Assembly: GCF_963921235.1 (NCBI RefSeq)
Contig: NC_086108.1
Span: 74,650,001 to 74,714,000, forward strand
From: Mobula hypostoma
Taxonomy: Eukaryota
DNA length: 64,000 nt
Direction of reading: 5' to 3'
Shown: one piece after another, positions 6,701 through 59,097 of the stretch
How the letters are laid out: each line of letters starts with the position of its first letter
Numbering within the stretch: position 1 is the first letter of the stretch
Made by a program: the position numbers and the translations under genes
Notes under the pieces: generated by a model
The model's database searches: none
What the model was told of the DNA's origin: nothing
Seen by the model: only the letters and a program-made list of their open reading frames with translations

Positions 6701-7336
6701 TTGATTTATTCCTCATAATCCATAGACATGCAGTTAAATGTCTTTGCCTAGTCTATCAAGTTTTATATTGATGTTGCATTGTAAGATCAAAGGTGTGTAG
6801 CTTGCCTGACCAAGAATTTATTTAAGAGTTTCTTTCCCCAAAATTTCAGGCAGAGGGAATGAAATCAATTGTCCAGTGATTGGTTCCCTAAAGAGTGCAT
6901 TAAGTATCCTTCACCCTGTTAGACCATTGCAGACTACAACATTGGATTATAGTAGGAGCATACTTTGTCTGATATTATTCGTTGAAAGTATGTTGTATGG
7001 TTCTGTTACTTGCATAACATTCTAAAGTAGTTAGCCCATCATTTTTAAGCAAATGCATTGAATTGTTATAATATGATTTCTGTGAGGGAACAGTGGAAGT
7101 GAATACCCCATTTCAGTTCGTTAGCACTATATCGAAAAGGAGATGAATGTTAGCTGTAATATGTTTAAAGAACTAATATGAATTAACTTAAAAATAAACA
7201 TAAAATAATAATATTCACGAGTTTGAACAGCTGATATTTAAGCAACACAAGCTTTCACTCAGTTGTTCTCAAAAATATTTAATACCATGAAATGAAAAAA
7301 TCCACTTTTAACTGATTTACTGTCTTAATAGATTGT

Positions 7337-8838
7337 ACCATAGAAACTACAGCACAGAAACAGGCCTTTTGGCCCTTCTTGGCTGTGCCGAACCATTTTC
7401 TGCCTAGTTCCACAGGGACCATATCCCTCCATACACCTCCCATCCATGTATCTGTCCAATTTATTCTTAAATGTTAAAAAAGAACCTTCATTTACCAACT
7501 CATTTGGCAGCTCATTCCATACTCCCACCACTCTCTGTGTGAAGAAGCCCCCACTAATGTTCCCTTTAAACTTTTCCCCCCTCACCCCTAACCCATGTCC
7601 TCTGGTTTTTTTCTCCCCTTGCCTCAGTGGAAAAAGCCTGCTTGCATTCACTCTATCTATACCCATCATAATTTTATATACTTCTATCAAATCTCCCCTC
7701 ATTCTTCTACGCTCCAGGGAATAAAGTCCTAACTTATTCAACCTTTCTCTGTAACTGAGTTTCTCAAGTCCTGGCAACATCCTTGTAAACCTTCTCTGCA
7801 CTCTCTCAACCTTATTTATATCCTTCCTGTAATTTGACCAAAACTGAACACAATACTGCAGATTCGGCCTCACCAATGCCTTATACAACCTCATCATAAC
7901 ATTCCAGCTCTTATACTCAATACTTTGATTAATAAAGGCCAATGTACCAAAAGCTCTCTTTACGACCCTATCTACCTGTGACGCCACTTTTAGGGAATTT
8001 TGTATCTGTATTCCCAGATCCTTCTGTTCTACTGCACTCCTCAGTGCCTTACCATTAACCCTGTATGTTCTACCTTGGTTTGTCCTTCCAACGTGCAATA
8101 CCTCACACTTGTCTGTATTAAACTCTATCTGCCATTTTTCAGCCCATTTTTCCAGCTGGTCCAAGTCCCTCTGCAGGCTCTGAAAATCTTCCTCACTGTC
8201 TACTACACCTCCAATCTTTGTATCATCAGCAAATTTGCTGATCCAATTTACCACATTATCATCCAGATCATTGATATAGATGACAAATAACAATGGACCC
8301 AGCACTGATCCCTGTGGCACACCACTAGTCACAGGCCTCCACTCAGAGAAGCAATTCTCTACCACCACTCTTTGGCTTCTACCATTGAGCCAATGTCTAA
8401 TCCAATTTACCACTTCTCCATGTATACCTAGCGACTGAATTTTCCTAACTAACCTCCCATGCGGGACCTTGTCAAAGACCTTACTGAAATCCATGTAGAC
8501 AATATCCACTGCCTTCCCTTCATCCACTTTCCTGGTAACCTCCTCGAAAAACTCCAATAGATTGGTCAAACATGACCTACCACGCACAGAGCCATGTTGA
8601 CTCTCCCTAATAAGCTTGTAGATTCTGTCTCTTAGTACTCCCTCCAATAACTTACCTACTACTGACGTTAAACTCACTGGCCTATAATTTCCCGGATTAC
8701 TTTTCGATCCTTTTTTAAACAACGGAACAACATGAGCCACTCTCCAATCCTCCGGCACCTCATCCGTAGACAGTGACATTTTAAATATTTCTGCCAGGGC
8801 CCCCGCAATTTCAACACTAGTCTCCTTCAAGGTCCGAG
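7337..8838 (-). mobile_element. Young CR1 LINE, 5' truncated, with 501-aa open RT frame (7325-8830)
   Basis: Motifs PGNYRPVSLTS, YMDFSKVFDKVPH, GVPQGSVLGPLLF, KFADDTKIGG and LQYCVQFW; CR1-type 3' tail gggccaaaaggcctgtttctgtgctgtagtttctatgg. Confidence 0.95.
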
Positions 8839-9324
8839 GTCTCTAAATTTCCTGAATATTTTCTGCAAGGAAGGTTGCTGTGGACATAGACAGGCAAAAA
8901 TTGTAGCTTTGTTATTGCCTTGTTGGAAACAGACAGACAATAAGCTTCGTGAGTGGATTATTGCTCATGAATGGGAGAAAGTGATTGTCAGGCAGATAAA
9001 ATAAAAAGAAAAACTATATGATTAGCAATATCACTTTTGACTTGTCAGGATTTGGACTGGAGCAGCTGCAAAATATCCTTTGCTGCTCTGAGCTGCCAAT
9101 GTGGTGATAAGCCAAGTGAGATTTCCTAGCCAATTATGTTGGGAACTGGGTGTGCTCCAAAACTTCGTCTGATGTAATGGCACCATTCATTTTCAGCAGA
9201 AATAAAAATTTTGGATCACTGCGTTTAATCTTTATTTGATCATCCCAAGGGGATGAGAACTGAAAAAAAAGATAATTATTAGTGGTCATTTGAGATGGGA
9301 AATGGCTATTTCCCATCTTAAAGT

Positions 9325-10225: not shown

Positions 10226-10326
10226 GTCCTGACGAAGGGTCTCAGCATCTTTCTATAGATGCTGCCTGACTTCCTGAGTTCATCCAGCATTTTGTGTGGA
10301 TTTCCAGCATCTGCAGAATCTCTTGT
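10226..10326 (+). mobile_element. Solo Penelope pLTR remnant with broken hammerhead
   Basis: gtcCTGACGAagggtctc then a deletion removing GAAA, followed by agatgctgcctgac...gatttccagcatctgcagaatc. Confidence 0.75.
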
Positions 10327-18432: not shown

Positions 18433-18600
18433 CAGAAAATGGTTCGGCACAGCCAAGAAGGGCCAAAAGGCCTGTTTCTATGCTGTAGTTTTTCTATGGT
18501 TTCTATGTGGGACTAGGCAGAAAATGGTTCAGCACAGCCAAGAAGGGCCAAAAGGCCTGTTTCTGTGCTGTAGTTTTTCTATGGTTTCTGTGGTTTTTCT
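18433..18600 (+). repeat. Tandem dimer of the young CR1 3' terminus
   Basis: Two near-identical copies of cagaaaatggttcggcacagccaagaagggccaaaaggcctgtttctgtgctgtagtttttctatggtttct, matching the tail of the 7337-8838 element. Confidence 0.85.
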
Positions 18601-21190: not shown

Positions 21191-21527
21191 AGGATAGAAC
21201 CCCTCCCCAGTCCTCTCTTTATTGAGACAACTTGTGTGGACCTATACTGAGAAATTTAAACAACTAAAATATGGAATTATGTAATCATTATAAGCACTTT
21301 AGCTTCTAATTGAGGATTTGACAAGTTCCTCTTGCTTCATATTTTCATCTTTTCAGCTGCTGTGGGAAATATTGTTCTGACAGGCTAGTAAATATGCTTC
21401 TTCTGCCTCAATATACTTAACAAGTTGTCAACCACTAAAAACCCATCCAGTTCCACAAGACATTGTTTATACACTTAAAAAAAACCTAAATGACCTCAGT
21501 AATGATTTTGTGTGTTTTTGTTAACAG

Positions 21528-21808
21528 ATAATATCAGGAGAATGCTACCGGATCCATTACATGAAGGAACATTCCAAGTCCTTTATCCGCAACCCATATG
21601 TAGCTGCTCTGTATAGACAAGTCGGCTGCTTCATCTTTGGCTGTGCTATAAGCCAGTCCTTTACTGACATTGCAAAAGTATCTGTTGGTCGCCTGAGGCC
21701 ACACTTTTTAGATATTTGCAAACCAGATTTTTCAATGATCAACTGTTCCCTGGGTTACATTGAGAACTTCGAATGCAGAGGGAATGAAAGCAAGGTTCAG
21801 GAAGCAAG
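21528..21808 (+). CDS. PLPP3: PLPP3 internal coding exon (equivalent to human exon 3), contains C1 motif KxxxxxxRP
   Basis: Acceptor ttaacag|ATA and donor GCAAG|gtgatt; 281 bp. Translates [94 protein letters not shown], closely matching the recalled LPP3 sequence ([40 protein letters not shown]). Confidence 0.96.
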
Positions 21809-22717
21809 GTGATTTTTTTTTTGCTTAATAATATATGGAATAGAACCATAATTAATATTATCATGATGCTGCCATAAATGTATTTTCCTGTCTCCCCCTC
21901 CCCCACCTAACCCCCACAAAGGGTACAGAGAGTGAAATTGTTCTCTGCTACCAAAGCTAGATCAGCTGATATTGAAATGTCAGTTTTACATCTGTCGGAT
22001 TGTACTGATGAAGTATGGGGGTGTGAGACCAATTGCCAAACATTTCTTAGATGATACGGTTTAAAAAATGTGCTGTAATTTATGTAAACTTATTGGAACA
22101 GTGTTTAAATTTATAATGTAATAAAACTATTGAGTGTATGGAATCTACTGATTATAATTCATGTTCACTGTTACATTGACTAAAATTTGAATTCCTATTA
22201 ATTTTAAATGAAGTTGTGCAGCTTAATTGTTGAGCAGTGTAAAGTTTTGTGATTGTATTATATTTTTCTCCTGATCGACAAAGCTACCCTCCCATTGCAT
22301 TTGATTTCTTCTGCATCCTGCGCCTCCTTTCACCCCAATTTTGGTGGCAGTGCATTCAGCTGCCTAGATATTCAATGCAGGAATTTCTTCCACAATCTTC
22401 TCAGCTTCATGCCCTTTGTGGCCATCACTTCAACTACATTTTGCTTACCCGCTCCCCTTTATTTTGTACAATTGCAATACCTTTTTATTGACATCGTTAC
22501 TGGTGTGAAATATGCTGGGAATTTTTTTTGTATTTAGCATTTCCTACAAATTTGTTATAAATATATGCTCCTGTTTTAATCCCTGATTTAATAACTGAGC
22601 TTGTTCAAAGAGTAGCTAAATCTGGTGTGAGCAGAGCACAGGCATGCTTCCTATAAATTTTTATCTATTATGTGTAAGGATAGAAGATCACAATGCCTGC
22701 AGTGCATATAGGAGAAA

Positions 22718-22829: not shown

Positions 22830-23580
22830 CGACCAGTCCCATAAAGCGTTGTGCCTCGGCCTAAGTGTTACACCTGCCCATACACCTCCTCCCTCACCTC
22901 CATTCAGGGCCCCAAAAGAGTACTTCCAGATGAGGCAACACGTCACCTGCGAATCTGCCGTCTGTTGTCTGTTGTGTCCGGTGCTCCTGATATGACCTCA
23001 AATACTAGGTGAGATCTATCGTAAATTGGGGGACCCCTTTGTCAAGCACCTCTGTGCCATCTACCACAAGTGGAACTTCCTGGTGTCAAAACATTATTAT
23101 TCTGATTCCCATTCTCGTTTTGACATGTCGGTCCACAGCCTCCTCTTTTGCCACGATGAGGCCACCTTCAGGGTGGAGGAGCAACACCTTGTATTCTGTC
23201 TGGTTCGCCTCCAACTGGATGGAATGAATATTGATTTCTTCTGGTTTAAAAAAAATCCCTCCCCCACCCTTTGACTTTTCACCTCACCTAACTATGACTT
23301 CCTCCTGGGTCCCCTCCTCCTTCCCTTTCTCCTATGGTCCACTCTTCTCTCCTATCAGATTGCTTCTTCTCCAGTTCTTGTCCTTTCTCACCCACCTGGC
23401 TTCACCTTTCACCTTCCAGCTCGCCTCCTTCCCCTCCACCTTTTTATTCTGGCATCTTAACCCTTCCTTCTCAGTCCTGGAAAAAGGTCTTGGCGTGACA
23501 TAGCAGCTGTTTATTCATTTTCATAAATGCTGCCTGACCTGTTGAGTTCCTCTAACATTTTGTGTGTGTGTTGCTTTGAT
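22830..23580 (+). mobile_element. Older Penelope-like element 3' part (GIY-YIG remnant, pyrimidine-rich UTR, degenerate pLTR)
   Basis: ORF pieces HVTCESA and DMSVHSLLFCHDEATFRVEEQHLVFCLVRLQLDGMNIDF are homologous to the 38 kb element. Confidence 0.85.
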
Positions 23581-25749: not shown

Positions 25750-25807
25750 GAAGTCGTTCTTCTCAGGACATGCCTCGTTCTCATTATACACCATGTTATA
25801 TTTGGCA
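25750..25807 (+). CDS. PLPP3: PLPP3 internal coding exon (equivalent to exon 4), C2 motif SGH
   Basis: Acceptor gttttgcag|G and donor GCA|gtaagt; 58 bp. First G completes the AG/G Arg codon from the previous exon, then KSFFSGHASFSLYTMLYLA. Too short for the ORF track. Confidence 0.96.
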
Positions 25808-27921: not shown

Positions 27922-28605
27922 TCATAAAGCACTACAACACAGAAACAGGTTTCCCGTAAATATTTCTCCTTTCACCTTTAACCTATTTTAGTTATAGCCA
28001 GCCTCAGTGGAAGCTTTCTATATCCCTCAGAATTTTGTATACCTCTGTCAAATTTCCCCTCATTTTCCTATGCTCCAGGGAATAATGTCCTAACCTATTC
28101 AACCTCTCTCTACAACTCTGGTCCTCAAATCCTGGCTATGTATTTGTAAATTCCTGTACTCTTTCAATTTTATTGATATTTTACCTATAAGAAGGTGACT
28201 AAAACTGTATACAGTACCCCAAAATTGGCTTCACCAACATCTCATACAATTTCAACATAACGTTCCAATTCTTATACTCATTGCTATAATTCAAGGCGGC
28301 CAATGTGCCAAAAGCACTCTTTGTATCCCATCTACCTGAGATGTCACCTTCAAGGAATTTTGTGTCTGTATTCCTAGATCCCTTTGTTCTACCACTCTCC
28401 TCAGCGCCCTACCGTTCTCTGTTTAAATTGTTCCCTGGTTTGTCCCCCCAAAATACAACACCTCACACTTGCCTACCATCTTTCGGTGTATTTTTCTAGT
28501 TGGTCCAGATCCTCCTTCAAGCTTTAATAGCATTCCTCACTCTCCACTATGCCCCCAGTTTTGGTGCCATCTGCGAATTAGCTGATCCAGATTGCCACAT
28601 TATTC
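27922..28605 (-). mobile_element. CR1 3' fragment
   Basis: Diverged homologue of 7340-8260. Confidence 0.8.
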
Positions 28606-30142
28606 AAGATAGCTTAGCCTCTTTTACTGTAAAGAGAATGAAATAATTGTTACTCCAGATCCGATGCAACACAAAAAAACAAACCCCACAAAAGATAAAG
28701 AACACAATAGCAGTACTAAAAAAACACACACACATTTTAGCCTTGACTGACAAATAGAACTGCAGGCCACAAATGTACATTATTTATTAGAATGGTATTT
28801 GGACTAAGCTGTATCTATATCACAGTCCTCTGAAATTGTCATACTGAAATAAAGTGTCATTAAAATGATTAAACATTCAGTTTCTTTAAATATGTTACAA
28901 AATTTCTGTGTGGCATTTTTTTTTGTAACTTGAAATTTCTGAATGAATGTTTTTATTCTTTTATTTAAAATAATCCTTACCACATAAAATTCCCTTAAGG
29001 CCAAAAACTGTTAAACAGAATTAGCCATGTACAGTTGTACGCTTAACTGTTTTCCCTTTATGATGTGAGGTTAAAGATTACTGGAATGTTGAAAAAAAGT
29101 GCTTGACCCTACCTCCAGATTCAGTTTACTGATGCTGCCCAGATACTGGGCTTCACATGGCTTGATTTATGATGCTTCTCAAATTGGGGTCAGTCTCTTG
29201 CCAGTTTAAGAGCAATGACATTGCAATAACTCAAATGCCTTTTCTCATTATAATATGTTCTAATGCATAGTAGCTTGGAGATTTTAAGCAATAGAAGCAT
29301 TTTTCCAAGACTGTAGCAATAAAATGGTCAATTGTTCTTGAAAAGTGCTTTTTCAACTAATTCCCAGCACAATGCTCTTTGTCTGTGGATTATGCCCCTA
29401 ATGTTATTAATAACAGAGCAGAGTGAAACTCTGAGTTGTATTGAGAAGCGAATACTGCATGGCATACAGCACTCATCTGACAGGCCTCAAAACAAGAAAA
29501 AGATTCTGGGAATATATACAAAGTGCTACTCATGGAGGGGCACAGACTTCTTGGCTGGGAATTGAATTACTTCCGTTGGGATTTGCTTTGATTTAAAAAG
29601 GGTTAAATATTGAAATTTAAAGGAAGGCTCCTTTCCTTTAATGTCAATAAATTCTTAAGAATCAAAGTAAGATTACAATGTAGAAATTCATATCAGTTGT
29701 ATATGCTTACAGGCAATGCAGGAGCAGCTGCAAGTGGCTTCCACTTTATAAACTTGGGTTCATTGAAGTTAGTCAAACTGAATTTCGGAAGCAGCCGATG
29801 ATATATGATCATTCTGAAATTTTGTAATTTAGCATAATGACCTAGAATGAATTTCAGCTTTACAGTCCCATGGAAATTTTAGTGTACTTATTAGGTAGTG
29901 TTAGAATGATGCAGATACTTTGACACAGTGTATAAACCTTTAGTTGCAACTGAGGCCCAGTGCTTCAGAGACTTGCCTTGGGTTTGTAAGGTGGTTAAGG
30001 GAGAGGCACAACTAGGAGTCAGACACCAGTTGTATCCATGTGATAGGGTCTATTTGGGGCAATAATGGGAGGCAAACAAGGAGAATGGCCTTTGAGTGTC
30101 TGTGGTCGATGGGAATATTTGAAGCTAACAACTGAAGGAGAA

Positions 30143-30332
30143 CAACAGGAATTCTGCAGATGCTGGAAATTCAAGCAACACACATCAAAGTTGCTGGTGA
30201 ACGCAGCAGGCCAGGCAGCATCTGTAGGAAGAGGTGCAGTCGACATTTCAGGCCGAGACCCTTCGTCGACTGCACCTCTTCCTACAGATGCTGCCTGGCC
30301 TGCTGCGTTCACCAGCAACTTTGATGTGTGTT
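30143..30332. mobile_element. 190-bp palindromic Penelope pLTR insertion
   Basis: Perfect 68-bp inverted arms 30177-30244 and 30265-30332 with a 20-nt loop; 13-bp TSD aactgaaggagaa at 30130-30142 and 30333-30345. Confidence 0.92.
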
Positions 30333-31134
30333 AACTGAAGGAGAAGCTGGAATCTAGAAACCGGGAGGGCACGGGAACTGGCCAAGGATTGCAGGGCTGA
30401 GAGTTAGAAAATCAGCAGGATGAGTGGGACAATTTCAAGGTTGTGTGTGGCTACAGATCAAGGAGTTAGCGACAGCCTGGAGATCAGAAGGTTGGCTCAA
30501 AGCAACTGATGGGATGTGGGACAAATAGGCCATTTATCATATTGTTTGGGAAATAAATTGATCTCCAATTGCACAATGCTGAAAAATTAGTGTTATAGAA
30601 TTTAAATTATCGGCATGTTCATTTTAGGCTTTCAAATATTTCACTAAGTTATTGGAAATATGAGCTGTTACAGACTAGTGAGGGCAGCAGGGCCCACTGT
30701 AATCTTGATCTATAACATATCCAGTGGTGTAACTCATTGACCAAAGAAAGTGCTTTAAGAATTGTGAAATAAATAGACCAAGAACTGTCAAGTATAAATT
30801 CAAAGCCAAATAATCAGGAAAGGAAGGGACTTTTAAAATGTTGTCTAATAATGACTTGCAGCCAAAAGGGTAAACATTTATAATTGTTGAAGTTCTTGGC
30901 AAAAAAAAATTGATTGCTTGTCATTATCAATCATCACATAATTTTAGGTGTAATTGGTAGGTCACATCTAATCATTAATATTTAAGGCCATTGAAATGTG
31001 TTTGATTTTTTTTTTCTTTTTAAACTACATTGTGCCTATCAAAGTTCAAAATCTCTGTTGTCAAGTACACTGTCTAGCACTGCTTTGGGTGGAGGTCTAT
31101 CCACAGACCAGTGTAGCTGTAGTTCAAACTACAA

Positions 31135-32785
31135 TATAGATTATAGGAGCAGAGCTATGCCATTTGACCCATCGAGTCTTCTCCGCCATTCAATCATGTC
31201 CGATCCTTTTTTTTCCCCTCTCCCTAGTCTTCACCCTGTAACCTTTGATGCCGTGGCCAATCAAGAATCTATCAATCTCCACCTTAAATACGCCCAAAGA
31301 CCTGCCCTCCATAGCAGCCCGTGGTTACAAATTCACCACCCTCTGGCTAAAGAAATTTTTCCACATCTCTGTTTTAAATAGACGCCCCTCTATCCTGAGG
31401 CCCCGATATTACTTCTCCAGCCTTATTTTCTAATGGTTGTATAACCACTCTCATCTCTTACTTTTTATAGACATGAAAAAGCTTTTTCTATCCACCTTGA
31501 AATTGTTTGCAGCTTGCTTTCATATTTAATCTTTTCTCTCCTAATGATTTTTTTAGTTGCTTTCTGTAGGTTTTTAAAAAGCTTCCCAATTCTCTATCTT
31601 CCTGCTAATTTTTGCTTTGTTGTATGACCTCTCTTTTGCTTTTACATTAGCTTTGATTTTCCATGTCAATCACAGTTGCACTATTTTGCCATTTGAGTAT
31701 TTCTTTGTTTTTGGAATACACATGTCCTACACCACCTTCATTTTTCTCAGAAACTCATGCCATTGCTGCTCTGTTGTCATTCCTGCCAGCAGTTCTTCCA
31801 ATTTACTTTGGCCAACTCCTCTGTAATACCACTGTAATTGACTTTACTCCACTGGAATACTGCTACATCAGACTTTACTTTCTCCCTATAATTTCAAGTT
31901 GAACTCAGTCATATTGGGATCACTGTCTTCTATGGGTTCCTTTACCTTAAGCTCCCTAATTGCCCCCGGTTCATTACGTAACACCCATTCCAGACTCAAT
32001 GACAAACTGCTCTAAAAGCCATCTCGTAGCCATTCAACAAATTCACTGTCTTGAGATCCATTACCAAACTGATTTTTCCCAATCTATCTGCATGTTAAAA
32101 TCTCCCATGACTATCTTAACATTGCCCTTTTGACATCTTTTCTATTTTCCATTGTAATCTGTAGTCCACGTCCCAGATACTGTTTGGAGGCCTGTATATA
32201 ACTGCTATCAGGGTCCTTTTACCCTTGCAGTTTCTTAACCCACAAAGATTCAACATCTTCTGATCCTATGTCACATCTTTCTAATGATTTGATGCCATTC
32301 TTTACCACTACTCTGCCTACCTTCCTATCCCTCCATTACAATGTGAAACCTTGCACGTTCAGCTCCCAACTCCAACCATCCTTCAGCCATGATTCAGTGA
32401 TAACCACAACATCATATCTGACAATCGGTAATAATGCAACAAGATCATCCACTATATCCATTATATTTCGTAAATTGAGATAGAACACTTTGAGTACTGT
32501 ATTTGCTACCCTTTTTGATTCTGCATCAAATGTACTGATACTCACCCTGCTGGCTGCAATTTTGTCCAATCATCTGCCTTCCCTTCCTGACAGTCTGATG
32601 GCATGCTATCTTTGCTTTTTTACCATCCGTCCTATCCTGTGCCCCTTCACACCAGTTCTTATTCCCCTGCCAAATGAGTTTAAACCTTCCCCAACAGCTC
32701 TAACAAACCTGCCTGCAAGAATATTGACCCCCCTCGGATTCGGGTGCAACCCGTCACTTTTGCAGAGGTCATACCTCCCCCAGTG
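31135..32785 (-). mobile_element. Internally deleted CR1 (3' tail fused to AP-endonuclease region and ORF1 end)
   Basis: ORF LKVFYLNLRNI...YDVVVITESWL...LNVQGFTL (APE N-terminus); CR1 tail at 31135-31400; no RT core between them. Confidence 0.75.
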
Positions 32786-34084
32786 AGATCAGACTCAAAT
32801 AATCACTTTATAGTTGACCATGGATTCATTGAGTGGAATAGTACTACTCATAATTTTTAATTCAAACAAAATATTAATCAGTGTAAATATTAAAATAAAT
32901 AATAGTGTTGCAAGCTCTATTTTAACTGAAAGGACCAACGAATACCCTGCCAGCATTGAGGTCTTGTCACTAGAATAGCAACTGTGTGCTGTGCTGTTTT
33001 CTGTTTGCTGTTTATCTTGCTGTGCACTACATGCATTTTGAATTATATCTCATGAACATATTTATGGTAACGTTTTGTTTTATATGCTGTGTGTGATATG
33101 TTGTGGGTACACCGTGCTCTAGAGTAATGCTCTTTTGTTTGTTTATATGTAGTCAGATGACACCTCCCTTAAAGTCTTTGATATTGTTTGCTTCTGAAGA
33201 GTTCCTTGGTAACCTATTCCATCTATCTTAACTCCTGCATAAACAAAATTCTTTCTTTTAACTTGGTAAATTTTAATAAATCTAAAGGTCTGAATTATAA
33301 ACGTCAAAGACTAAAAGCATTAGAACCAGTGTCTGGAATTAATTTATGTGGTGTGACTTCAGGGTGATTCTCTCATACCCACACATTATTAGAATAAGAA
33401 TCATGAAATGTTTTGAAAATAATTTACTGTGTAATTAAAGCCCCAGTGGTTTTGATCCTTTGTATTACACTTAGTGACGCCAAATAGCTCTAGTCTCCAG
33501 TGAATACTTTACATGGTTTGGCACATGTACAACAGTTGCTGTTTATTAGGCCTTGAGCATTTGTTTGAACTTTGCTCTCTATTTACAGGAGATACCATCA
33601 GCTACCACATTTTGTGTACATTGCCCTACATGTGGAAGCATTCTCATATTGGCCAACAGCAAGTCCGCAGTTTTCCTTGATAGCGATGATGAAAAATGAT
33701 CTGTTTCACAGCCCTTAATGTGTTATAAGGTTTCTCACATTATCCTTCAGTGGTGTTTTATATGCAAATGTCTTTTACTCTTGATCTTGGCTCTATACAA
33801 TCATTTTGTTTTAGCACTTGTATTGATCAATTGAATTTATGTTTCCATTATTTTCTATGCGTATCCTATTTGAAAGCACACTACCAATCAGAATAACAAT
33901 GCTCACCATTAGGCAGGACTTACACAAACAAGCATTTTTTGCTGTACCCTGTTTATTACACGTTTTGCAAATTCAAGTCAACTCTGATTCCCTCTGGCCC
34001 CTTGGTATCATGTTCTGCTAAATCTGCACCATGAACTGAAACAGGCCTTGGCCAGCAGTTCCATTTTATGATGATGGATTAACA

Positions 34085-35985: not shown

Positions 35986-37725
35986 TGTGTCATTTGTTGT
36001 AGAGCAGTTCTGTCTGCCATTTATTTTTGTTTGCTTTAACAAACTTTTATGGAAAATATTTCTGTAAAATGTGGAGAAACTTGATTCATTCATGAATGCA
36101 TGATATTAAAGTAATCTCTTGGTGATAAAGAGATGTGTGGTTATTTTTCAACTAAGAACAAGGGACATTTCTATTCTACTGAACTCTTGTGTGCTAATTT
36201 ATTAAACCTCTGTACTTTTTATACCAAATTAAGAAAGTTTATTTAATTTGGGCTTGAGGGAAAGTAGCTGAGTGAGGAGAAGGTGGGAAATGTTTTCCCT
36301 GCCTTAGAGACAAAACATATGAGACTGCAGTAATTCGTTCATGGATACATCACTAGGGATGTTAGAAAACCATGTCTTTATTCTGGTGTGGCTTTTTCAG
36401 AGCTTTAGTCAGTATGTAGGTTTTGGCTGAATCAAATAATGATTGTGAGATATTGGTAGTTTGTTTTCATTTAGTCTCTGTGTGTTCTGTTGCACAGTGT
36501 CACTGTTGATTATAAATTGCTTATTAAAAATAATTCATTAGTTTTGTAGAGCAATATTGAGTCTTGGAGTTGGGAGGATCGTATAAATGTAAACTTAATT
36601 ATTCAGGAGTTAATAATATTGCCGTGACTTTTTTTGTTCACCTCGACATTTTAACGTACAGTGTCTCTTTATCTTGGCTGCTTGGAGTTCGAAAGCGGAT
36701 AAAAACAAATCTTTTCAGTACGCACTTGGAGCAAGCAGTTTAGTGTGGCAGAACACATCCCATTCTCTTGTGCACTTAACCATACTCTGAAAATTCCAGC
36801 CCATTCCTAACATTGATGATGTTACAGACTATCAGCATTATTGTTACTTTATTGAACAAGATAATCTTTCAATGCTGAAAACTTGTCTGAATGAAAGCTG
36901 TTTTAAATTGTGACAAGTGTTCTCCTAAACTATTTTAAATAACTCAGAATTGAATAAACAATTTTCATTATGCATTTTTTTTGCCAAACATAAAGTAGGT
37001 TGGTGAGCTTAGCTTTAGCTTTGTTGCTCAATTGTGCTGGTAAGTAATAAGTTTCACAATGACAATGATTAATTTTCTAAGATGCAAATCTCAATAAATA
37101 ATTTATGGAGATACTTTTATCAGATGTAACCCCCAGTGGCTTATGATTTTAACATATTTCTCATGAATTATATCTACATTTATATTATGAACGTACAAAA
37201 CAAAACCTAAAAGAAAGCTCAGAGTTACATAAAAATGTTTAACGTTTAGAATAATCTTCTCAGAAGTGTTGGAGATTAATTAACATATTAAATAGCATAA
37301 ATATGTGGTTGTAGGTTATTTTGAATTTATTGCTGTTGGTGGTTAGGAATTGAAGAAAAAGTTAATGATTAAATAACATGACCAAAAACAGCTTTCACTA
37401 ATATCATAAGCACAACCTAATTCTGAGTGCTAGTCTGTGACATAAACCTTTCTCCTTGCATTTCCATACAGAGAATTCTTGGATGCAATCCTCCATGAAT
37501 ACCAAGAGGAAATCTGTTTAAAAAGAATTTTACATTAGCTTAAACCAGAGAGAAATTGCTCAATTGATTTAGTTCTGTAAATATATTGATCTCTGTCTTT
37601 GCACTGTACTGCTGTCACAAAACAGCAAATTTCATGTCACGTGTCAGTGATAATAAATCGGAGCAACACACATCAAAGTTGCTGGTGAACGCAGCAGGCC
37701 AGGCAGCATCTATAGGAAGAGGCGC

Positions 37726-37761
37726 AGTCGACGTTTCAGGCCGAGACCCTTCGTCAGGACT
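37726..37761 (-). ncRNA. Minimal type I hammerhead ribozyme in the pLTR
   Basis: Minus strand reads AGTC-CTGACGA-AGGgtctcggCCT-GAAA-C-GTC/GACT: complete core, helix I AGUC:GACU, 3-bp helix II, palindromic ACGU helix III. Confidence 0.85.
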
Positions 37762-38062
37762 AACTGAAGGAAGAGTGAGTAAGGGATTTGAAAGTGGGAG
37801 GGGGAGGGGGAGGGGGAGATGCAAAATGATAGGAGAAGACAGGAGGGGGAGGGATAGAGCCGAGAGCTGGACAGGTGATAGGCAAAAGGGGATACGAGAG
37901 GATCATGGGACAGGAGGTCCGGGAAGAAAGACGGGGGAGGGGGGTGACCCAGAGGATGGGCAAGAGGTATATTCAGAGGGACAGAGGGAGAAAAAGGAGA
38001 GTGAGAGAAAGAATGTGTGCATAAAAATGAGTAACAGCTGGGGTACAAGGGGGAGGTGGGGC

Positions 38063-38990
38063 CTAGCGGAAGTTAGAGAAGTCAATGTTCATGCCATCAG
38101 GTTGGATGCTACCCAGACGGAATATAAGGTGTTGTTCCTCCAGATGTGGAATTAAAATGTGTGGCCACTGGGAGATCCTGCTTTCTCTGGCGGACAGAGC
38201 GTAGATGTTCAGCAAAGCGGTCTCCCAGTCTGCGTCGGGTCTCACCAATATATAAAAGGCCACATCGGGAGCACCGGACGCAGTATATCACCCCAGTCGA
38301 CTCACAGGTGGAGTGATGCCTCACCTGGAAGGACTGTTTGGGGCCCTGAATGGTGGTAAGGGAGGAAGTGTAAGGGCATGTGTAGCACTTGTTCCGCTTA
38401 CACGGATAAGTGCCAGGAGGGAGATCAGTGGGGAGGGATGGGGGGGACGAATGGACAAGGGAGTTGTGTAGGGAGCGATCCCTGCGGAATGCAGAGAGAG
38501 GGGGGGAGGGAAAGATGTGCTTAGTGGTGGGATCCTGTTGGAGGTGGCGGAAGTTACGGAGAATAATATGTTGGACCCGGAGGCTGGTGGGGTGGTAGGT
38601 GAGGACCAGGGGAACCCTATTCCTAGTGGGGTGGTGGGAGGATGGAGTGAGAGCAGATGTAGGTGAAATGGGGGAGATGTGTTTAAGAGCAGAGTTGATA
38701 GTGGAGGAAGGGAAGCCCCTTTCTTTAAAAAATGAAGACATCTCCCTCGTCCTAGAATGAAAAGCCTCATCCTGAGAGCAGATGCGGTGGAGACGGAGGA
38801 ATTGCGAGAAGGGGATGGCATTTTTGCAAGAGACAGGGTGAGAAGAGGAATAGTCCAGATAGCTGTGAGAGTCAGTAGGCTTATAGTAGACATCAGTGGA
38901 TAAGCTGTCTCCAGAGACAGAGACAGAAAGATCTAGAAAGGGGAGGGAGGTGTCGGAAATGGACCAGGTAAACTTGAGGGCAGGGTGAAA
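38063..38990 (-). pseudogene. PLE RT C-terminus/thumb, Cys-rich linker and GIY-YIG endonuclease (truncated, frameshifted)
   Basis: LKFTWS...LPFLDL...YYKPTDSHSYLDYSSSHP; CKRNKCYTC; VIYCVRCSRCGLLYIGET..RFAEH. A deletion near 38143 (relative to the 23 kb copy) shifts frame before EEQHLIFRLGSIQPDGMNIDF. Confidence 0.92.
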
Positions 38991-39849
38991 GTCTCGGCCT
39001 GAAACGTCGACTGCGCCTCTTCCTATAGATGCTGCCTGGCCTGCTGCGTTCACCAGCAACTTTGATGTGTGTTGCTTGAATTTCCAGCATCTGCAGAATT
39101 CCTGTTGTTTGATAATAAATCGGATTCTGGTTCAAAAGGTGGACAGTTTCCATTATATGTAGCTGGTGATGAGAGAGACCAAAGGATCAAGGCACTACAG
39201 CCAATCGCCAGTAACAGCATGTATCCCCCATGCCACCCACGAAGCACCCTGAATCCCACATCTGAGTGCTGAGTGGCTAAGCTGCTCATCCTGGTTTGCT
39301 TAACTCCAGATCTCATTATCAACCTCTCCACACCATATCTCATTGTCAACCTTTCCACACCAAGCTGTTGGTAATTCATGGCTACAAAAGTGCAGTGGAG
39401 GACATAAATGTGGGCCAGGGTTCCTGGACCTAGGTTCCCTTCTCAGCAGTTGGAACAGGAAGCAGGACGAGGGACTTGTATCAGTTCATGGCATTGTACT
39501 GGCCACAGCAGGGGCTTGTGCCATGTTTTAGCACACTATATCCCAAAACAAAATTCTGTTTTGGCCCCTTTTGGCGTGTATTCCATTAATGATCTTAATC
39601 CTGTGAGTGTATTATTTGTCCTGTACAAAGTGTCAGTTCAAGTCACCAGGCCTTGGATGAAGTCTTTCCCAGCTACAAAGAGAGAAAGTGGCAGAGACTC
39701 TGACATCTGTGGCTATAAGGCCTCTGCTAAGGGATTGGAACACTGCTGCTGATCATCATTGTCTAAAAAGAGAGGCAAGAATAAACTGAACTATTACAGA
39801 TGGTTAATTAAACTTCTGTGGTGGGCAGAATAAACACTCCTGTAAGGAG

Positions 39850-49700: not shown

Positions 49701-51479
49701 AGTGCCCACGGGCAGGAAAGTTTCTGAAAAACTAACTTTTCTCAGTATCACCCTAAATCAGCATTGTATGGGAAATGGCATCATTGCTTGCAAACAGAAC
49801 ATGAAAACACATGATGGTAAGTGCCCATAAGAATTTTTGGAATGGCAGAATTTGACCAAAAACTATCATAACTATGTTCTACTCTGGAAGGAAGTGATTT
49901 CTGCACATGCAGTGCGATGAACACCACGCTACAAAACTGAGTTTTAGGCTATTCAGGATTAATCCTTGCTCTTTTTGGGAGAGGAAATTGTTTTAGTAGG
50001 TGCTATCAGAGTAAGATGGATGTGTAATTGCAGTGTATTTGTAAGTGGTCACACACAGCTACTGTTTATTGGTGATGGTGGGAAAGAATGTTTAGTGTGC
50101 ATCAATCAAGTGGGCTGCTTAGTCCTAGATGCAGTCAGTGTTGGCGCTACTGCCTTCCAAGCAAGTCAAAAAAGAATCTGTCGCACCCTGACTTGTGCCA
50201 TTCTAGGTGAATGGAGAGAGTTTGGATATCACATTTTTATGTGGTTGCTCCATTTGGATTTCTGGACAGTGATGACCCCCGCCCCCAACACCACCAGACC
50301 TGCTTCTCAGAACTTTTCTGTTTTCATCAAACTATTCCTCATTACCTTCATGCTTTCTGAAATACTTAATTCGTATGATGTGGTTGTATGGAATGTCTAA
50401 AACGGGAATAAGGCCATGGGAACTCTCAAGAGCACTGCTAGGGATAGTGGGCACTGATACTCAGCTGCAGATGTACTAGAACAGCTATATGGTTCTGGGT
50501 TATTTGACCACAGATAGTCAAATGAGTTCTGCAAACTCATTGGCACAAAGGACCATGGTTTCACTAAATGGGAATGCAACACAAAGTTTCTATTCCCAAG
50601 CCTTGGTGCCACCTGTTTTTAAAGTATAACACATGCGAATAAAAGATGCCTAATACTTTAACAAGTGTATAAGCACTCTCATAACATTAAGCTAATGTGA
50701 CAATTACGGTAAATGTTAGTTAAGCTCCACTGAATTATATTACTGCAGCTGCCACTGTCAATATTTTTGGCTACAATTGCAATCATTATATTTCCTCTAA
50801 TCAATGTTTACATTTTTCATGATATAGTTTACAAATTAAAATGCATTCATGATTATATTGTAGATGTGATTAAATTATAATTAATTACATTTGTTTTTCC
50901 CTTTAACCGTTTGCATGCTTCATTTTCTTTGTTGATGGCGATGTTGAGAAAACTCCTATTAGAGAAAAAAAACCCATTTGTCTATGAAGACATGATATTA
51001 TTATTATTATTATTACAGAAAACCTGCAGAAATATTTGCATATTTTAAAATATGCAAATATGAACGATATGATTTTATTTCACCATTGGATCCTATATTT
51101 CCAACTCACAATGATGGGCTGAATTATGTGTTTGAGCTACAAGGGTTAACTATAGAATCAATTTCAAAACAGTAATCTGGTTTTTAGAGCCCATAAAGAT
51201 ACAAAGAAATACTATATTTGTCCAAATTCAGTCCTATTTGACAGTGCTATTCAGAGCAGGAATGGTAGGTATTGGATGTTGCACAAATGTGTTTGAGTTA
51301 CGGTTATCACTGAAGGAAATGCATATTGCATTAATCTTGCACCTTACCTGGTTTGTGTGGTCATTGAGACAGACACTGAGTGTAGTGAAACATATCATCC
51401 CAACTTTGATATATTTTACAATTGTGTATATACCTTAGCACCTGTTGAATTTAATTGAAGAACTGTGAATGGTGAATGT

Positions 51480-52180
51480 CCACTCATATTAATTCCTCTT
51501 CCTATTCCCATCCAGACATGTCAGTCTGTGCCCCCCCGCCCCCACTGCTGTGATGAAGCCACACTCAGGTTGGAGGAGCAACACCTTGTATTCCGTCTGG
51601 GTAGCCTCCAACCTGATGGCATGTACATCGATTTCTTGAACCTCCGGTAATGCCCTCCACTTCACCATTCCCCATTCCCATCTCCCTCTATCACGTTGTC
51701 TCCTTATCTACCCATCATCTTCCTCTGGTAACACACATCAAAGTTGCTGGTGAACGCAGCAGGCCAGACAGCATCTGCAGAATTCCTGTTGTTTGCGTTT
51801 TTAAAAATCTTCCTCTGGTGTTCCTCCCCCTTCCCTTTCTTTCATGGTCTTCTACCCTCTCCTATCAGATTCCTCCTTCTCCAGCCCTTTCTCTCTTTCA
51901 CCAGTTGACTTCCCAGCTCTTTACTTCACCTCTCCCTCTTCACCTCTTCACCTCTCCTGGTTTCACCAATCACCTACTACCTTGTATTTCTTCATTCTCC
52001 CCCACCCCCACCTTCGTACTCTGACTTCCCATCTTTTTCCCTCCAGGACTGATGAAGGTTCCTGGCCCAAAACAGCAAGCGTTTACTCTTTTCCATAGAT
52101 GCTACCTGACCTGCTGAGTTCCTCTGACAATTTTTGTGTGTTGCTGTGATTTCCAGCATCAGCAGATTTTCTCTTGTTTT
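51480..52180 (+). mobile_element. Older Penelope-like element 3' part
   Basis: ORF CDEATLRLEEQHLVFRLGSLQPDGMYIDFLNLR; pyrimidine-rich UTR; pLTR with CTGATGA at about 52049 but caaaa in place of GAAA. Confidence 0.85.
51730..51806. mobile_element. 77-bp minimal insertion of the young Penelope family
   Basis: 13-bp TSD atcttcctctggt at 51717-51729 and 51807-51819; inverted pLTR arm joined to the forward tail through cagcatct. Confidence 0.88.
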
Positions 52181-58791: not shown

Positions 58792-58968
58792 TTTTATCTA
58801 CAGGCCCGCTTCACGTGGAGAGGAGGCAGACTCCTTCGACCCTTGCTCCAGTTCACACTGGTGATGATGGCTTTCTACACTGGGCTGTCTCGTGTATCAG
58901 ACCATAAGCATCATCCCACAGACGTTCTGGCTGGCTTTGCGCAGGGAGCCCTGGTGGCTTATTTCATT
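58792..58968 (+). CDS. PLPP3: PLPP3 internal coding exon (equivalent to exon 5), C3 motif SRxxxxxHxxxD
   Basis: Polypyrimidine tract plus ctcttcag|TTT and donor ATT|gtaagt; 177 bp, phase 0. [59 protein letters not shown]. Confidence 0.96.
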
Positions 58969-59097
58969 GTAAGTATTATGTCATTGTATTTTACAGTCTT
59001 TCTGAGAAATATCCGTGCTTGAGAGCCTAAGGCAGCTCTTAAATGGCTATGATTCAACAATTCAAAAGAGACTCTCAACAATTGCAGCTCCCTGGGA

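Follow-up and report, generated by a model that had tools for sequence, protein, structure and literature searches.

The 190-bp insert at positions 30143-30332 of the window (the whole stretch of 64,000 nucleotides that was analyzed) is a head-to-head pair of Penelope-like element (PLE) terminal-repeat fragments flanked by a TSD, the shortest form of a layout already published for these elements. Its two arms fold back on each other as a long hairpin and meet beside the predicted cut of a hammerhead ribozyme. We think it reasonably probable that the insert arose from two target-primed cDNAs, both made from uncut element RNA and joined via a 3- to 4-nt match that abuts the predicted cut.

Anatomy of the hairpin insert

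Over 68 bp, positions 30177-30244 match the reverse complement of 30265-30332 exactly, with a 20-nt loop (30245-30264) between them. This confirms the perfect 68-bp hairpin described in the earlier note and places it far beyond shuffled sequence in both length and fold. When 28000-33000 was shuffled 200 times by mononucleotide, the longest exact inverted repeat reached at most 20 (mean, 13.3), and none of 200 shuffles was as stable as the predicted RNA fold of the hairpin (-151.5 kcal/mol; z = -22). A 13-bp TSD lies on both sides of the insert; a 13-mer common to both flanks was found in only 21 of 100,000 flank shuffles. With element positions numbered so that 0 is the last base before the predicted cut, the arms are identical at 65/65 positions from +1 to +65, and 34 nt on the left arm only, the tail, are left unpaired. 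The parts of the insert, listed with coordinates and strand, are as follows.

30130-30142, plus strand: left TSD copy, 13 bp
30143-30176, minus strand: PLE tail, 34 nt, on the long arm only; 119 nt that include the tail match the inverted, tail-bearing piece of copy 2 (described below) at 97%
30177-30244, minus strand: paired part of the long arm, the pLTR end from -2 to +65 of the predicted cut
30245-30264, minus strand: hairpin loop, a hammerhead remnant (end of the CUGANGA box, stem II, and GAAA) by side-by-side comparison with copy 2
30264-30267, unstranded: junction microhomology, GTC (own arm) or CGTC (intact copy), wholly 5' of the predicted cut at 30267/30268
30268-30332, plus strand: short arm, pLTR +1 to +65, without a tail
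30333-30345, plus strand: right TSD copy, 13 bp

The canonical hammerhead core runs in the order CUGANGA...GAAA...UH, and the cut falls between GTC and GAC. By this order, the junction lies where the earlier note had placed it: the ambiguity window ends on its right at GTC/GAC, the letters read CCCTTC-GTC-GACTGCACC with GTC (30265-30267) assignable to either arm, and the left arm does end inside the CTGACGA box, after the C3-U4 letters. C3-U4 are missing from the minus strand of the hairpin copy and the plus strand has no core; with its core incomplete, we reject an active ribozyme at the hairpin locus. Apart from these two core letters, the minus strand of 30232-30278 corresponds to an intact ribozyme whose stem I continues as a long perfect duplex. 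Compared with copy 2, the loop shows one C-to-T change at a CpG.

Artifacts are known to include perfect palindromes, and an assembly error or a library fold-back could in principle have made this one. Such an artifact would not, however, yield a 13-bp TSD, a 20-nt non-palindromic loop, or a short arm that ends at the family-wide position +65, and the same layout recurs in two sister copies. We therefore regard an artifactual origin as hardly credible.

Sister copies and the element family

Two further young copies are present in the window, each described here with its coordinates, strand, and parts.

37663-39110, minus strand: copy 2, an inverted tail-bearing pLTR piece plus a 1.3-kb 5'-truncated PLE body, with a 15-bp TSD
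38991-39110, minus strand: inverted pLTR piece of copy 2
38109-39008, minus strand: thumb/GIY-YIG frame of copy 2
37733-37757, minus strand: intact hammerhead core of copy 2
51730-51797, minus strand: copy 3, a tail-only inverted arm plus a short arm, with a 13-bp TSD

Copy 2 is 97% identical to the hairpin insert over their shared ends. Two variants separate the two copies, and both are present in both arms of the hairpin. The minus strand of copy 2 holds a 299-aa open frame with GIY-YIG at its end, followed by a hammerhead core that is predicted to be a complete minimal type I core (CUGANGA, stem II, GAAA, minimal helix III, and UH, with stem I closing). The insert does derive from a hammerhead-bearing repeat, as the earlier note had assumed. 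The frame matched GIY-YIG (PF01541) with an E value of 0.001 and 19.7 bits, below the cut-off of 22.6, and its neighbors in the Atlas, at scores of 0.93 to 0.96, carry PF26215 together with GIY-YIG. Copy 2 ends before the RT core, and the window has no full-length copy. Rfam returned no match at the gathering score in the 64 kb and no hammerhead model on copy 2 at E values up to 10. In the predicted monomer fold, the hammerhead core pairs with the cut-site strand, giving a rod-like, non-catalytic structure.

One plan is common to all three young copies: a TSD, an inverted arm beginning from the tail, the junction, a direct arm, and the second TSD. Counted from the predicted cut, the direct (short) arms reach +65, +65, and about +67, the TSDs are 13, 15, and 13 bp long, and the tail is found on one end only in every case. 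It is the tail and the +65 ends that the TSDs adjoin, not the predicted cut site. Judged by these sequence features (a GIY-YIG source, an inverted pLTR partner, a 34-nt tail, and a TSD), the insert is best classed as an EN+ Penelope-like element insertion.

The standard anatomy of such insertions includes an inverted 5'-truncated partner and a 30- to 40-bp tail (PMC8557442, PMC3846280), the latter also described in PMC11167929. The copies analyzed here and the published EN+ insertions (PMC8557442, PMC3846280) are alike in their head-to-head inverted terminal repeats, 30- to 40-bp tail on one end, TSD, junction overlap, pLTR hammerhead motif, and, in the sister copy, C-terminal GIY-YIG frame. 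The hairpin differs from them in that its arms are shorter than 130 nt, are without coding sequence, and form a perfect hairpin around 20 nt. In Poseidon of Anolis carolinensis (PMC11167929), likewise, two copy ends about 34 nt apart bound the tail, a hammerhead lies upstream, and the short arm ends in an AC-rich TGTGTGTT stretch; the mechanism of Poseidon was measured, whereas we only infer that of the hairpin insert. Copy 2 also resembles the metazoan PLE minimal hammerheads (PMC4209133) in its type I core with a palindromic minimal helix III, unlike the hairpin copy, which lacks C3-U4 and has its cut site buried in the 68-bp stem.

Two other classes of element were considered. A DNA-transposon MITE is excluded by the unequal arms, the retroelement tail, and the sister copy with a GIY-YIG frame. 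A non-LTR retrozyme, a class defined by tandem repeats that each carry a type I hammerhead (bioRxiv 10.64898/2026.07.22.740005), is excluded by the inverted arrangement and the lack of a tandem array at the site.

The family to which the insert belongs is very large. Contigs of four sequencing runs (two from one sample of organism A, one from organism B, and one possible RNA run of organism A) were piled up on copy 2 (37500-38990), where 240,801 contigs aligned from the first run. In one run, summed depth was about 6 x 10^5-fold higher over the terminal repeat than over the unique flank, a ratio that is not a copy number. Pattern scans for more copies found none in viral contigs and none in genome contigs, and all 11 metagenome loci were chance 19- to 22-nt matches in DNA of 58 to 75% GC.

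Several features of individual copies were also observed. In copy 3, about 9 to 12 extra A/T-rich letters that are absent from copies 1 and 2 lie between the tail and the TSD (51798-51806), possibly as an untemplated addition or a longer tail. An older, decayed PLE copy on the plus strand at 22863-23574 retains GIY-YIG remnants and a degenerate hammerhead. Older diverged terminal-repeat copies at 10226, about 18930, about 43342, and 58712 begin around -27 to -37, where hammerhead stem I has its outer edge, and the 18.9-kb copy seems to carry a short inverted arm. A contig joint in run X1 (depth, 181) leads from 37772 back to 37733 with 5 intervening letters, and may represent a variant in which the hammerhead core region forms a short tandem repeat.

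Origin of the junction at the predicted cut

The long arm of the hairpin extends from the tail down to -25 and crosses the cut site (30241/30242) uncut; thus, uncut RNA was a template in the event. The short arm starts within -2 to +1, or within -3 to +1 if its source had GAAAC as in copy 2. The resulting overlap is 3 nt (GTC) when measured against the insert's own arm and 4 nt (CGTC) against the intact copy 2. The microhomology switch mentioned in the earlier note is the proper alternative to cleavage. In element coordinates, the overlap pairs -25 to -22 with -3 to 0 (GACG with CGUC), at a pair probability of 0.98 to 1.0 in the predicted monomer fold. Since it lies 5' of the cut, the overlap would be absent from the run-off of a cleaved end, and its use would imply an uncut template. 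An overlap that played no part in the join would be there by coincidence.

Taking as given the observed arms, one-sided tail, TSD, identity to the GIY-YIG-bearing copy 2, read-through of the cut, and overlap 5' of it, we infer the start sites, stops, and annealing of two cDNAs. Two target nicks would each prime one cDNA on uncut RNA. The top-strand cDNA would start at the distal site (the tail end) and stop at -25, and the bottom-strand cDNA would start at the proximal site (+65) and run at least 3 nt past the cut. The 3' ends of both cDNAs would then anneal via the overlap and be filled in. A similar scheme underlies the 5' inversions produced by L1 twin priming, in which two opposite target-primed cDNAs are joined at a microhomology within one TSD. 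In L1, the two pieces are copied from separate parts of a single RNA, whereas the hairpin arms copy the same 65 to 68 nt.

Consistent with the two-cDNA reading are the TSD, the tail on one arm, the same layout in three of three copies, and the joining of copy 3 at an 8-nt match. Work on the anole PLE provides a biochemical precedent, in that two RT start sites bound the tail in vitro and both strands are extended (PMC11167929). Furthermore, ribozyme-dead mutants of that element insert normally in vitro, and in the available portion of the same paper no RNA-seq reads begin or end at the cut. Against this reading, a blunt join or a template jump from cleaved RNA would give identical letters. Titles and abstract openings in the literature search included none on twin priming in Penelope, and a two-primer join was not reported in the available portions of the PLE papers examined.

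Alternatively, a single cDNA started at the tail could have stopped at -25, folded back via the 3- to 4-nt match, and copied itself, with the endonuclease resolving the product at +65 and no cleavage involved. Self-priming has been proposed for palindromic inverted PLE junctions (PMC3846280) and endonuclease resolution for the tail (PMC8557442), and a snap-back of this type accounts for both the 65/65 identity of the arms, including their shared variants, and the need for an overlap. The shared variants fit arm-to-arm copying as well as they fit two cDNAs from one source. However, as DNA the fold-back has little stability (+1.5 kcal/mol in the hairpin copy at the observed register, and -0.2 to -1.0 kcal/mol for the intact sequence). 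The short arm of copy 2 (1.3 kb) has sequence absent from its 120-nt inverted arm and cannot be its copy, and the +65 end is explained directly by the second RT start site (PMC11167929). We consider snap-back synthesis unlikely, if worth keeping in mind.

The earlier note had proposed instead that the junction is a footprint of ribozyme cleavage. In this case, the short arm would be the run-off of a hammerhead-cleaved RNA, joined bluntly or by a template jump to a long arm made from uncut RNA. The ambiguity window does end exactly at the predicted cut. The notion that an insertion boundary records ribozyme cleavage has also been put forward for R2 ribozymes. The same principle has been published for the twister T-variant ribozymes at the 5' end of Perere-3 (PMC8501958), and the anole PLE ribozyme, for its part, cleaves once the element protein is added (PMC11167929). 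A single minimal hammerhead, on the other hand, showed no detectable cleavage in vitro in the available portion of PMC4209133. The parallel with Perere-3 stops at the common idea, since there the TSD abuts the cut family-wide, whereas in the hairpin family the TSD adjoins the tail and +65 and the cut is internal in one of three copies.

Other junctions were compared with that of the hairpin. Among the young copies (n = 3 junctions; 13 arms of all ages in the window), one junction in three, and one arm end in six, is at the predicted cut. In copy 2, -17 is joined to about -1260. The junction of copy 3 falls in the region +19 to +27, at an 8-nt match of +19 to +26 with +77 to +84 that is the longest internal inverted match of the element. 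None of seven older diverged arms is at the cut; four start near -27 to -37, one at about +13, and two further upstream, although these boundaries are approximate. In the contig pile-up on copy 2, the joints listed (15 of 636) and the loose-end rows listed (24 of 4,363) included none at the cut (37729/37730), and the listing of common ends was empty.

The cleavage footprint is not favored, given that the cut was copied uncut, the overlap lies in the 5' product, two of three young junctions are elsewhere, and none of the seven older arms starts at the cut. If the short arm were a run-off, the 3- to 4-nt overlap would be a coincidence, as only one usable upstream GAC exists among 128 positions, and the normal insertion of the ribozyme-dead anole mutants also speaks against a need for cutting. 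We consider the footprint reading rather doubtful.

The position of the junction can also be viewed in terms of the matches on offer. Among possible overlaps, counted for short-arm starts from -40 to +55, those that touch the cut number 2 of 44 at a length of at least 4 nt and 7 of 181 at a length of at least 3 nt. The ribozyme's own complementarity supplies these inverted matches, so that 4 to 5% of microhomology junctions would look like that of the hairpin, and in a large family many such junctions are expected without any cleavage. On this model, it would be the sequence of the ribozyme, and not its chemistry, that attracts junctions to the cut site. By a rough estimate, the hairpin junction is about equally likely under cleavage (a long-arm stop at 1 of about 128 positions) and under microhomology (1 of 44 overlaps, multiplied by the share of such joins), and the preference between them rests on priors. 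Overall, a short sequence match, rather than ribozyme cutting, is the likely determinant of the junction. Titles and abstract openings, mostly from outside subscription papers, included no report of PLE junctions at a hammerhead cut site.

The insert might also once have been a longer palindrome, formed for example by a join within stem I (-31 to -28 with +1 to +4), from which 2 nt at the center were later lost. Indeed, apart from the missing C3-U4 and a long, perfect stem I, the insert reads on its minus strand as an intact ribozyme. The second 4-nt match that touches the cut is that of stem I, older arms often start near -30, and microhomology deletions have been reported in PLE copies (PMC3846280). 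Nevertheless, a second event would be required in a copy whose identical arms and perfect TSD mark it as young, and no intermediate was seen. Such a central loss appears very unlikely.

Ribozyme function and the host intron

As a single insertion the hairpin carries little weight, being an ordinary member of a known PLE kind. The available portion of PMC4209133 gives no in vivo evidence of cleavage by PLE minimal hammerheads, and they were dispensable in vitro (PMC11167929). A broader claim would be that the minimal hammerhead of Penelope cuts in the germ line when bound to the element protein, the cut RNA being the run-off template for one of the two cDNAs. We hold this to be improbable; if it were true, hairpin junctions of this type would preserve, across some hundred thousand copies, a fossil trace of ribozyme activity in vivo. 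The size of the family would allow a well-powered junction test of in vivo cutting by a PLE hammerhead. A peak at GTC/GACT in a raw histogram of junctions would be confounded and would prove nothing, because 3- to 4-nt inverted matches are piled at the cut by the complementarity of the ribozyme. Only a comparison of core-intact with core-dead subfamilies, restricted to starts at +1 that have no overlap, would be informative.

All three young copies lie within one intron of the host gene.

25808-58791, plus strand: intron of a PLPP3-like gene

Plus-strand exons of this gene were placed at about 21525-21809 (reading-frame bounds), 25751-25807, and 58792-58970. The last of these gave a PAP2 match and was closest among solved structures to PLPP3 (E value, 7e-32, versus 6e-17 or weaker for PLPP1/2); Pfam gave no family for the exon piece at 21525-21809. 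The location in a PLPP3 intron given in the earlier note thus holds, in the form of a PLPP3-like gene with exons on both sides.

The host pre-mRNA, for which the insert is on the sense strand, would be expected to fold a 68-bp perfect duplex at this site, a length that ADAR enzymes edit; its two arms contain 21 and 10 adenosines. At the DNA level, the 20-nt loop is expected to hinder cruciform extrusion. If many inserts form perfect intronic duplexes, they could be the main source of long double-stranded RNA in the genome. The insert itself is probably neutral intronic DNA. A word search of sequencing runs with 29000-31500 returned eight rows with at least half of the words, and no RNA run was among these.

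Other repeats in the window were recorded as well. The 86-bp identical inverted arms of copy 2 (37662-37747 and 38991-39076) lie 1.2 kb apart in the same intron, and a second long RNA duplex is possible there. A perfect 30-bp AT-rich palindrome without a loop is found at 51032-51061, and an imperfect 34-bp palindrome at 9289-9322. On the minus strand, 7325-8842 holds an uninterrupted 505-aa reverse-transcriptase-like frame resembling a CR1-type LINE, and an 85-bp tandem repeat at 18433-18589 resembles the 3' end of this element.
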